A stretch of DNA of 8,652 bases, taken from the IMG/VR virus record IMGVR_UViG_2648501437_000024, positions 1 to 8,652 of that record, one strand, 5' to 3'. Shown here one piece after another: positions 4,474 to 4,926 of the stretch. The stretch's first letter is position 1. Each line of letters opens with the position of its first letter. Under the pieces are notes generated by a model. That model worked only from the letters and a program-made list of their open reading frames with translations. It made no database searches and had not been told where the DNA came from. The stretch is from a virus (lineage: Duplodnaviria > Heunggongvirae > Uroviricota > Caudoviricetes). The position numbers and the translations under genes are program-made.

Positions 4474-4560
4474 TGGCGGAGAGTAATGGAATCGAACCAT
4501 CATCGCTTGCGCAATGGGACGGCTTTCAAGACCGCTTGAGCACCATGCTCCCTACTCTCC
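4474..4560 (-). tRNA. tRNA-Ser (anticodon UGA), class II, CCA encoded
   Basis: Hand-folded: acceptor GGAGAGT/ACTCTCC, discriminator G, anticodon arm GCGGT-CUUGAAA-GCCGU, long variable arm, T-arm GATGG-TTCGATT-CCATT, 3-bp D-stem. Irregularities: A at position 8 and wobble pairs in the anticodon stem. Confidence 0.6.
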
Positions 4561-4773
4561 AATTGTTGTGGTGCCGGGTGCTTCCCGGTGTCCTTTGGCT
4601 GGTTATCCACCGTGGACGGAGCCAATAGTCATCACAAAGGATCAATATAACCATTTCCCCGCGTGCGCTTAGCCGCATTCACCACAACGAAAAGAGCACT
4701 GTATGACGTTTGCACGGACTTACGCTTCAAACAGGGCAGTCTCGGCGGTTCTCAATGCTCTTTCCTGTTGTGT

Positions 4774-4849
4774 TGGTGCCGGTTAACGGATTCGAACCGC
4801 TGACATCCTGCTTACAAGGCAGGTGCTCTACCAACTGAGCTAAACCGGC
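4774..4849 (-). tRNA. tRNA-Thr (anticodon UGU), CCA encoded
   Basis: Hand-folded cloverleaf: acceptor GCCGGTT/AACCGGC, D-arm GCTC-AGTTGGTA-GAGC, anticodon arm CCTGC-CTTGTAA-GCAGG, T-arm AGCGG-TTCGAAT-CCGTT, discriminator A, CCA. Confidence 0.8.
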
Positions 4850-4851
4850 AT

Positions 4852-4926
4852 TGGCGATGGTGGGTGGATTCGAACCACCGACCAGTTGGTTAACAGCCAA
4901 CTGCTCTACCGCTGAGCTACACCATC
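4852..4926 (-). tRNA. tRNA-Asn (anticodon GUU), CCA encoded
   Basis: Hand-folded cloverleaf with all stems perfect: acceptor GATGGTG/CACCATC, D-arm GCTC-AGCGGTA-GAGC, anticodon arm GTTGG-CTGTTAA-CCAAC, T-arm GGTGG-TTCGAAT-CCACC, discriminator G; 2 nt from tRNA-Thr. Confidence 0.85.

Follow-up and report, generated by a model that had tools for sequence, protein, structure and literature searches.

A window of 8,652 nucleotides (nt), meaning the whole stretch of viral DNA that was analyzed (IMG/VR record IMGVR_UViG_2648501437_000024, positions 1 to 8,652), carries exactly three tRNA genes, tRNA-Asn(GUU), tRNA-Thr(UGU) and tRNA-Ser(UGA), all called by ARAGORN on the minus strand and spanning 4474-4926 (Table 1). 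On balance, these are likely to be functional genes of a mobile cassette of SSU5-like and P1-like phage-plasmids, with decoding supply as the main benefit. The third of them is, on comparative evidence, a functional tRNA for serine that belongs to an already described non-canonical class, with an acceptor stem of 8 base pairs (bp) and a T stem of 4 bp (8/4), in which A8 is one side of a base pair and not a lesion or a local adaptation. From the genes themselves, their conservation, the covariation of their paired bases and the codon bias of the element, we infer that the tRNAs are expressed, charged and of benefit to fitness. Three tRNAs had been read at this place in an earlier note made from the sequence, and that observation was confirmed as a whole.

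A tRNA cassette of phage-plasmids and its codons

The window was 98.5-99% identical over ~96% of its length to Escherichia coli plasmids of 108-112 kb. These plasmids encode RepB, RecA, DnaE, primase, helicase, ATP-dependent ligase/AplA and CobT-like genes, and they also hold a complete siphovirus tail, capsid and terminase block. Because the matching plasmids combine plasmid and replication genes with a siphovirus structural block, the window is, by this likeness, an SSU5-like phage-plasmid of E. coli. Over the Asn-Thr pair and some of the spacer behind it, identity to trnA/trnT of phage P1 was ~90%, with tRNA-Asn matching P1 trnA at 68 of 76 positions, tRNA-Thr matching P1 trnT at 73 of 76, and compensatory changes in the anticodon and T stems of tRNA-Asn. 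The cassette is common to P1, P7 and D6, where it lies within the C1-controlled (C1-repressed) ban operon, and the trnA (Asn) and trnT (Thr) genes of these phages are ~90-97% identical to those of the window, are ordered alike, lie 2-5 nt apart and have an STnc100-like element in company. The systems differ in several respects: the backbone of the window is that of an SSU5-like siphovirus phage-plasmid, whereas P1 is a myovirus; the C1 operator, the ban gene and tRNA-Ile are absent from the window; the Thr-Ser spacer is ~450 nt long in P7 and D6, about twice the length seen here; and pair 31:39 of tRNA-Asn is G31-C39 in the window and A31-U39 in the P1/P7/D6 system. The Ser gene was found in P7 (86/87 identical) and D6 (85/87), and, among 5426 complete E. 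coli genomes, in 330 (~6%; 334 records), with 333 of its 335 places on plasmids.

Across loci the cassette was modular, in the order [Asn(GUU) or Arg(UCU)] - [Tyr(GUA)] - Thr(UGU) - ... - Ser(UGA) - ... - CAU-anticodon tRNA, the last being called Met by ARAGORN and annotated as tRNA-Ile2 in P1 and P7. In some cassettes (IMG/VR relatives L021, L069 and L105) tRNA-Arg(UCU) takes the first slot instead of tRNA-Asn, and therefore the cassette exchanges single tRNA genes while the order is kept. We propose that the cassette is exchanged between SSU5-like and P1-like phage-plasmids of Enterobacteria and that its minus-strand transcript would run Asn-Thr-(STnc100-like RNA)-Ser-hairpin-terminator. Compensatory changes, seen between the P1 and window tRNA-Asn and in a Klebsiella allele of tRNA-Ser, point to structural constraint on the cassette tRNAs.

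The earlier note had taken the genes for phage-lineage tRNAs and not for host copies, and the comparison with K-12 agrees: identity to the isoacceptors was 65% for Asn (asnT), 82% for Thr (thrU) and 63% for Ser (serT). The Asn acceptor stem that it had singled out as unlike E. coli, GATGGTG in the gene and GAUGGUG in the tRNA, indeed stands against UCCUCUG in K-12 asnT. CCA is encoded in all three window tRNAs, also as described, and follows a discriminator base; however, K-12 serT, thrU and asnT encode CCA too, so this is no sign of phage origin. The description of the genes as tightly packed holds for Asn and Thr, which lie 2 nt apart, and fails for Ser, which is separated from Thr by 213 nt.

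The cassette would add decoding of AAY, ACA and UCA, and probably also of UCU and UCG by wobble. Codon use was compared between the 98.5%-identical plasmid (100 kb, 46% GC) and K-12 (50 kb, 52% GC), with open reading frames (ORFs) called alike in both. Per 1000 codons, ACA occurred 16.0 times in the element and 6.4 times in K-12, UCA 13.4 versus 6.6 and UCU 15.5 versus 7.9, an over-use of ~2-2.5-fold for these three codons, while Asn codons stood at 48.8 versus 34.2. When the 61 codons were ranked by the ratio of element to K-12, AGA came 1st, ACA 3rd, AUA 5th and UCA 6th; AGA and AUA have their readers in sister cassettes, the Arg(UCU) and Ile2 tRNAs. To our knowledge, serT is the sole UGA-anticodon serine tRNA gene in E. 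coli. On the threonine side, thrU is the sole UGU-anticodon tRNA gene in MG1655 (PMC12445682). This pattern of codon compensation is the best-supported benefit of the cassette.

Several points weigh against decoding supply. Asn codons are enriched only 1.4-fold and Tyr, found in sister cassettes, does not read rare codons, so the repertoire as a whole calls for more than codon supply. The over-used codons AAG, GAG and AGA have no tRNA of their own in this element, and a promoter scan of 4200-6000 found no sigma-70-like promoter. The codon tables themselves rest on our own ORF calls, made for one relative (100 kb) and for K-12 (50 kb).

Nuclease targets and the anticodon arms

A likely second benefit for Thr and Asn would be survival of host tRNA nucleases such as PARIS AriB, since position 39 of both is unlike that of the host. 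Going further, the cassette might be mainly an anti-defence device that supplies nuclease-insensitive replacements for the host tRNAs hit by PARIS AriB, P2 Old, the retron Eco7 PtuAB and the FORC82 HNH nuclease, its differences from the host having been selected for escape. We hold this as a tentative explanation, ranked second to codon supply, and the two are not mutually exclusive. Host tRNAs with the anticodons of the window are indeed nuclease targets, Thr(UGU) and Asn(GUU) for AriB and P2 Old, and all tRNA-Ser for the FORC82 retron. However, known nuclease targets are now so numerous that a chance overlap is not small, and the codons concerned are also those over-used by the element.

AriB of the E. 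coli B185 PARIS system cuts three host tRNAs, Lys(UUU), Thr(UGU) and Asn(GUU), beside U36AAU39 and between positions 40 and 41, and a U39A change abolishes cleavage of tRNA-Lys (PMC12409363). The T5 trio of Lys, Thr and Asn tRNAs neutralizes PARIS (PMC11464382, PMC12409363). Positions 36-41 read UAAUCA in host lysV and thrU and UAAUCC in asnT; in T5 they read UAAACC (Lys), UAAGCA (Thr) and UAAGUU (Asn), and in the window UAAGCA (Thr), identical to T5 Thr, and UAACCA (Asn). Both window tRNAs therefore lack the U39 of the AriB motif U36AAUC/A41 (the slash marks the cut), with G in Thr and C in Asn. The anticodon stems are CCUGC/GCAGG in tRNA-Thr and GUUGG/CCAAC (G31-C39) in tRNA-Asn, whose anticodon loop, CUGUUAA, is that of host asnT. 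The P1 and Klebsiella Asn alleles retain UAAUCA; relative to these, pair 31:39 is the very pair that carries a compensatory swap in the window Asn. All three window tRNAs depart from the host at position 39 (plus-strand sites 4811 for Thr, 4889 for Asn and 4523 for Ser), with G in Thr and C in Asn where the host has U, and G in Ser in place of the A of the host and of all close relatives.

The sequence likeness to the T5 anti-PARIS set thus comprises the Thr(UGU) and Asn(GUU) anticodons, the substitution at position 39 and the Thr hexamer at 36-41. It has limits. Bypass of PARIS by T5 requires the T5 tRNA-Lys, and AriB also requires determinants distant from the cleavage site (PMC12409363). 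No tRNA-Lys(UUU) was called by ARAGORN among the window tRNAs or is annotated in 100 kb of the 98.5%-identical plasmid (all but its last 8 kb), where the same three tRNAs were the only ones. The host-like UAAUCA of P1 Asn speaks in the same direction. Even so, nuclease escape is plausible, on the bases at position 39, for the window Thr and Asn, which the earlier note had treated as ordinary.

P2 Old gave a different picture. Its preferred target is tRNA-ThrU, with Lys, Asn and Val also attacked, and phage Thr(UGU) tRNAs rescue (PMC12445682). The enzyme cuts paired CNG motifs of the anticodon stem, and resistance takes an altered CNG together with a shortened stem, both being needed (PMC12445682). 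The window Thr retains C28UG30/C40AG42 and a full 5-bp stem and is therefore predicted to be Old-sensitive by that rule. Only a second Thr(UGU) allele, found in Tyr-containing sister cassettes and always beside tRNA-Tyr, fits the resistance rule: its anticodon arm is GUCGC-UUUGUAA-GCGAA, with both CNG motifs lost and a G27·A43 mismatch. It differs from the window Thr at 12 positions, 10 of them within 27-48 (Fisher p = 3e-5), which amounts to a replaced anticodon arm and variable loop on the same acceptor stem, D arm and T stem, and this concentration of differences counts in favor of an anti-defence role.

Retrons extend the list of targets to the other cassette tRNAs, which again favors such a role. 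The FORC82 type I-A retron of E. coli, which carries an HNH nuclease, depletes all four host tRNA-Ser species, but it also cuts the T5 tRNA-Ser(GCU), and T5 shows no evasion (PMC12475279). Retron Eco7 (PtuAB) depletes tRNA-Tyr (PMC11555353). Targeting of tRNA-Ser(UGA) is not reported in the papers on Schlafen and HepS that were checked. Escape changes in the anticodon loops were ruled out, all three loops being identical to those of the K-12 tRNAs, with differences at stem positions only. The alignment at known cleavage sites, which the earlier note had proposed as a check on escape, was thus mixed: Thr and Asn lack the U39 of the AriB motif, whereas Thr keeps the CNG motifs cut by P2 Old and every loop is that of the host.

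In its widest form, the anti-defence idea would make the cassette of P1-like and SSU5-like phage-plasmids a counter-defence module against the tRNA nucleases of rival mobile elements (PARIS and Old on P4/P2-type elements, retron HNH and PtuAB), with anticodon-arm alleles diversifying under that pressure and the 8/4 tRNA-Ser itself an escape shape that keeps recognition by SerRS and EF-Tu. We consider this version unlikely, and decoding supply by functional tRNAs remains our preferred reading of the cassette.

The proposed 8/4 fold of the serine tRNA

Position 8 of canonical tRNAs is an unpaired and nearly invariant U. In the window tRNA-Ser this position is A and position 14 is C, so that neither U8 nor A14 is present. 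The gene had no match at the gathering score (GA) to the general tRNA model of Rfam, RF00005; under a permissive threshold its best family was tRNA-Sec (RF01852), at 42.3 bits (GA 47) and E = 6e-7. The P7, D6, rV5-like and Klebsiella relatives behaved in the same way, with tRNA-Sec as the best model (40-46.6 bits) and no match to the general one. The gene thus departs from a canonical class II tRNA-Ser (7/5) in its A8, its C14, the lack of an RF00005 report and its 63% identity to serT. The earlier note had called the Ser gene structurally non-canonical from its A8 and from two wobble pairs in the anticodon stem. Both readings were correct, the stem being GCGGU/GCCGU with G27·U43 and U31·G39, and A8 now finds a place in an 8/4 phage tRNA-Ser architecture.

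In the proposed cloverleaf, the acceptor stem (GGAGAGUA/UACUCUCC) has 8 bp and is followed by a compact D arm, GAGC(A)-UGG-(U)GCUC, an anticodon arm, GCGGU-CUUGAAA-GCCGU, a variable arm of 6 bp, CAUUGC-GCAA-GCGAUG, and a T arm of 4 bp, AUGG-UUCGAUU-CCAU. The D stem GAGC/GCUC has 4 bp, or 5 with A15-U19, which leaves a loop of 5 or 3 nt; relatives have stems of 4-6 bp and loops of 3-5 nt. Two SerRS identity elements of the 8/4 class, a long variable arm and a G73 or U73 discriminator, are present, the discriminator here being G with CCA behind it. With 8 bp in the acceptor and 4 bp in the T stem, this tRNA-Sec-like build of an old phage family would still stack 12 bp as normal tRNAs do. [quoted passage not shown]

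Related tRNA-Ser sequences were found by blastn in 364 phage genome records, including rV5-like and T5-like coliphages, T4-like and T5-like Klebsiella phages, and phages of Acinetobacter and Streptomyces. IMG/VR was scanned with a pattern, which gave 120 loci. Out of these 120 loci, 56 distinct tRNA-Ser(UGA) sequences with a compact D arm were parsed, and 52 were aligned after four with a longer D arm had been dropped. Position 8 and position 65', the base just 3' of the T stem, formed A-U in 30 of the 52, G-C in 11, U·G in four and U-A in two and were unpaired in five, that is, they paired in 47/52 with four pair types and 17 double-sided changes. The competing 7/5 pair, 49:65', was paired in 39/52 (GU 26, GC 8, with 13 unpaired) and showed only 3 double-sided changes; for the most part the pair was G·U or G-C, its G constant. 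Among the 56 parsed sequences, 13 pair solely as 8/4 and 4 solely as 7/5. It is this covariation of 8:65' in the relatives that supports the 8/4 assignment. For the window tRNA-Ser itself, the folding energy was -33.2 kcal/mol as 8/4 and -29.8 as 7/5, a gain of 3.4 for 8/4, in which G49 is free to close the 6-bp variable stem. Two points tell against the assignment: the bases of the window tRNA-Ser permit both A8-U and G49·U, and the scan pattern fixes the T loop and the UGA anticodon. Since its own bases permit either pairing, the 8/4 fold of the window tRNA-Ser rests on the family covariation together with the energy.

A class of (8/4) tRNA-Ser has been described among the false positives of the tRNA-Sec model, from bacteriophages, proteobacteria and rumen Clostridia, and the E. 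coli translation system was shown to make full use of 8/4 tRNAs (Mukai et al. 2017, NAR 45:2776, PMC5389517). The window gene shares the 8-bp acceptor and 4-bp T stem of this class, by comparative and not by direct evidence, and comes from one of the same sources, bacteriophages. It differs from the class consensus, which has a 6-bp D stem with a tetraloop, in its D arm of 4-5 bp with a 3-5-nt loop. Unlike the allo-tRNA class, it has the cognate serine anticodon and hence is not a recoding or suppressor tRNA. T5 tRNA-Ser1(UGA) (T5t08) shares the build, the anticodon and the host species, with GGAAGGUA...UACCUUCC, a D arm GCGUA-GUGG-UACGC and a T stem AUGG/CCAU. The stem and variable-arm sequences differ, the T5 discriminator is U where the window has G, and the T5 gene sits in a cluster of ~25 tRNAs of a virulent phage. 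Bacterial tRNA-Sec (RF01852), the top-scoring Rfam model, shares the 8-bp acceptor, the compact D arm and the long variable arm. A tRNA-Sec or a recoding tRNA was nevertheless ruled out, as the anticodon is UGA (reading UCA) and not the UCA of tRNA-Sec, the acceptor branch has 12 bp (8/4) and not 13 bp (8/5), and the score is below gathering.

These departures from the canonical form could also be read as signs that a tRNA-like RNA in decay, or one with no role in translation, was miscalled as tRNA-Ser, for instance a pseudogene, processing signal or regulatory RNA. The absence of U8 and A14, the score below the gathering threshold of the general tRNA model, and the second wobble pair that the window allele gains beside its anticodon loop would fit such a reading. 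So would the D6 GenBank note, 'apparent UGA Serine anticodon but AA not called by tRNAscan-SE'. But the gene is nearly invariant in the 334 E. coli records, it keeps a 7-nt anticodon loop, the GGUUCGAUUCC T arm, G73 and CCA, and PGAP labels identical genes tRNA-Ser in RefSeq plasmids. A Klebsiella allele carries compensatory changes at 5:79 and 6:78 of the acceptor stem and 12:22 of the D stem. The GenBank record of the T5 homologue describes an effective amber suppressor after an anticodon swap, and other 8/4 tRNAs are active in E. coli (PMC5389517). We therefore judge decay or a non-translational role very improbable and keep to a functional 8/4 serine tRNA.

The two wobbles of the anticodon stem have different histories. 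G27·U43 is the commonest state of that pair in the family (21/52), and U31·G39 results from a lone A39-to-G change with respect to P7, D6 and the closest plasmids, all U31-A39. Exact matches to the U31·G39 allele came from isolates of chicken, pig, human and river origin, 8 of the 334 E. coli records in all, and by this recurrence it is a real minority lineage allele that would still pair. The earlier suggestion that selection for nuclease escape had shaped the Ser features found no support, A8 being half of a covarying pair, G27·U43 being typical of the family and the anticodon loop being that of host serT.

Two side observations concern phage relatives of this gene. A second abundant phage tRNA-Ser(UGA) type (GGAGAGAGUCCGGUUGGUCGAGGAC...) has a G8 able to pair with U65' (IMG/VR loci such as L024, L031, L042 and L071), and this GGAGAGAGUCCGGUUGGUCGAGGAC type may also depart from the 7/5 cloverleaf. 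In rV5-like phages, the interval between tRNA-Ser and tRNA-Thr holds a tRNA-like sequence of 97 nt that lacks annotation, with RF00005 scores of 37.5 and 35.5 bits (L003 490-586 and L004 489-585).

Least probable of all, and ruled out by the divergence from host genes and by the plasmid location, is an origin of the tRNA genes as att-site remnants or as host DNA taken up by the nearby tyrosine recombinase (1651-2754): an integrase gene ~1.7 kb off and the frequent use of tRNA genes as phage integration targets would suit it, but the genes are complete and 18-37% divergent from the host, the cassette is conserved in non-integrating phage-plasmids and virulent phages, and E. coli chromosomes hold only 10 of the 809 places matching the window.

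Neighboring elements and significance

Three RNA elements accompany the tRNA genes (Table 1). The STnc100/PasD-like match overlaps the tRNA-Ser gene at its 3' end. Sub-threshold matches of the same kind lie between tciA and upl in P1 and downstream of Ser in P7 and D6, and one sister plasmid has such a match too, so that the position relative to Ser varies between elements. STnc100 has been linked to PasD prophage small RNAs (sRNAs) in a 2026 preprint, and the element may represent an sRNA, as yet without annotation, that moves together with the cassette. Beginning 3 nt past the CCA of tRNA-Ser, a long hairpin forms a structured 3' trailer of the tRNA transcript; the trailer as a whole (4296-4473, 178 nt) folds at -59.2 kcal/mol with z = -7.0. 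Such a trailer could be a processing or stability element, or could give rise to a trailer-derived sRNA. The terminator-like hairpin behind it is the probable end of the tRNA transcript on the minus strand and, in the opposite direction, of the convergent ORF at 3385-4293.

Table 1. Features of the tRNA region in the window, and places of the second Thr(UGU) allele in sister cassettes.
Feature	Position	Strand	Size and structure	Call or score
tRNA-Asn(GUU)	4852..4926	-	75 nt, CCA encoded	ARAGORN; RF00005 75.5 bits
tRNA-Thr(UGU)	4774..4849	-	76 nt, CCA encoded, 2 nt downstream of Asn	ARAGORN; RF00005 76.5 bits
Thr-Ser spacer	4561..4773	-	213 nt	
tRNA-Ser(UGA)	4474..4560	-	87 nt, discriminator G73 and CCA	ARAGORN
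STnc100/PasD-like RNA element, sub-threshold	4522-4706, mainly 4561-4706	-		RF02076 44.8 bits (GA 47), E = 2.7e-8
Long hairpin	4394..4471 (arms 4394-4413/4452-4471)	-	20-bp stem, 38-nt loop, 95% complementary inverted repeat	
Intrinsic-terminator-like hairpin	4298..4317	-	GGGGC-UUCG-GCCCC, then U run	Terminator scan and fold
Second Thr allele, locus L012	1972-2047			
Second Thr allele, locus L021	3913-3988			
Second Thr allele, locus L069	4797-4872			
Second Thr allele, locus L072	9266-9341			

The wider neighborhood gave two further observations. Between its integrase and glutaredoxin genes, the RefSeq plasmid closest to the window carries ~800 additional bases, on which two small hypothetical genes lie (L001 2652-3666); the insert is not in the window (~2755-2965), and the site beside the tRNA region is therefore an indel hotspot. 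The GNAT toxin family paired with TacA acetylates aminoacyl-tRNAs, and metG encodes methionyl-tRNA synthetase. A related plasmid, NZ_CP082122, encodes a TacA antitoxin with a GNAT acetyltransferase toxin, a full-length metG, a type I restriction-modification system and dfrA51 (L137 31558-32356; L138 25881-27914, 31093-37017 and 45863-46339).

As a set, the three tRNAs are routine, being already annotated in hundreds of RefSeq plasmids and in P1, P7 and D6, and the genes, the cassette and the 8/4 class were all known from databases or the literature. What is new is the assignment of a common enterobacterial phage-plasmid tRNA-Ser to the 8/4 class, and the fit of cassette anticodon-stem alleles to the PARIS and Old determinants. 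The first bears on an odd tRNA-Ser that is present in ~6% of complete E. coli genomes and has confused annotation, being left blank in P7, uncalled in D6 and missed by the general model of Rfam, and it places the 8/4 fold as common in ordinary enterobacterial phages, T5 among them. The second, the fit of alleles to the PARIS and P2 Old determinants, bears on whether temperate phage-plasmids, beyond large virulent phages, use tRNAs as counter-defence.

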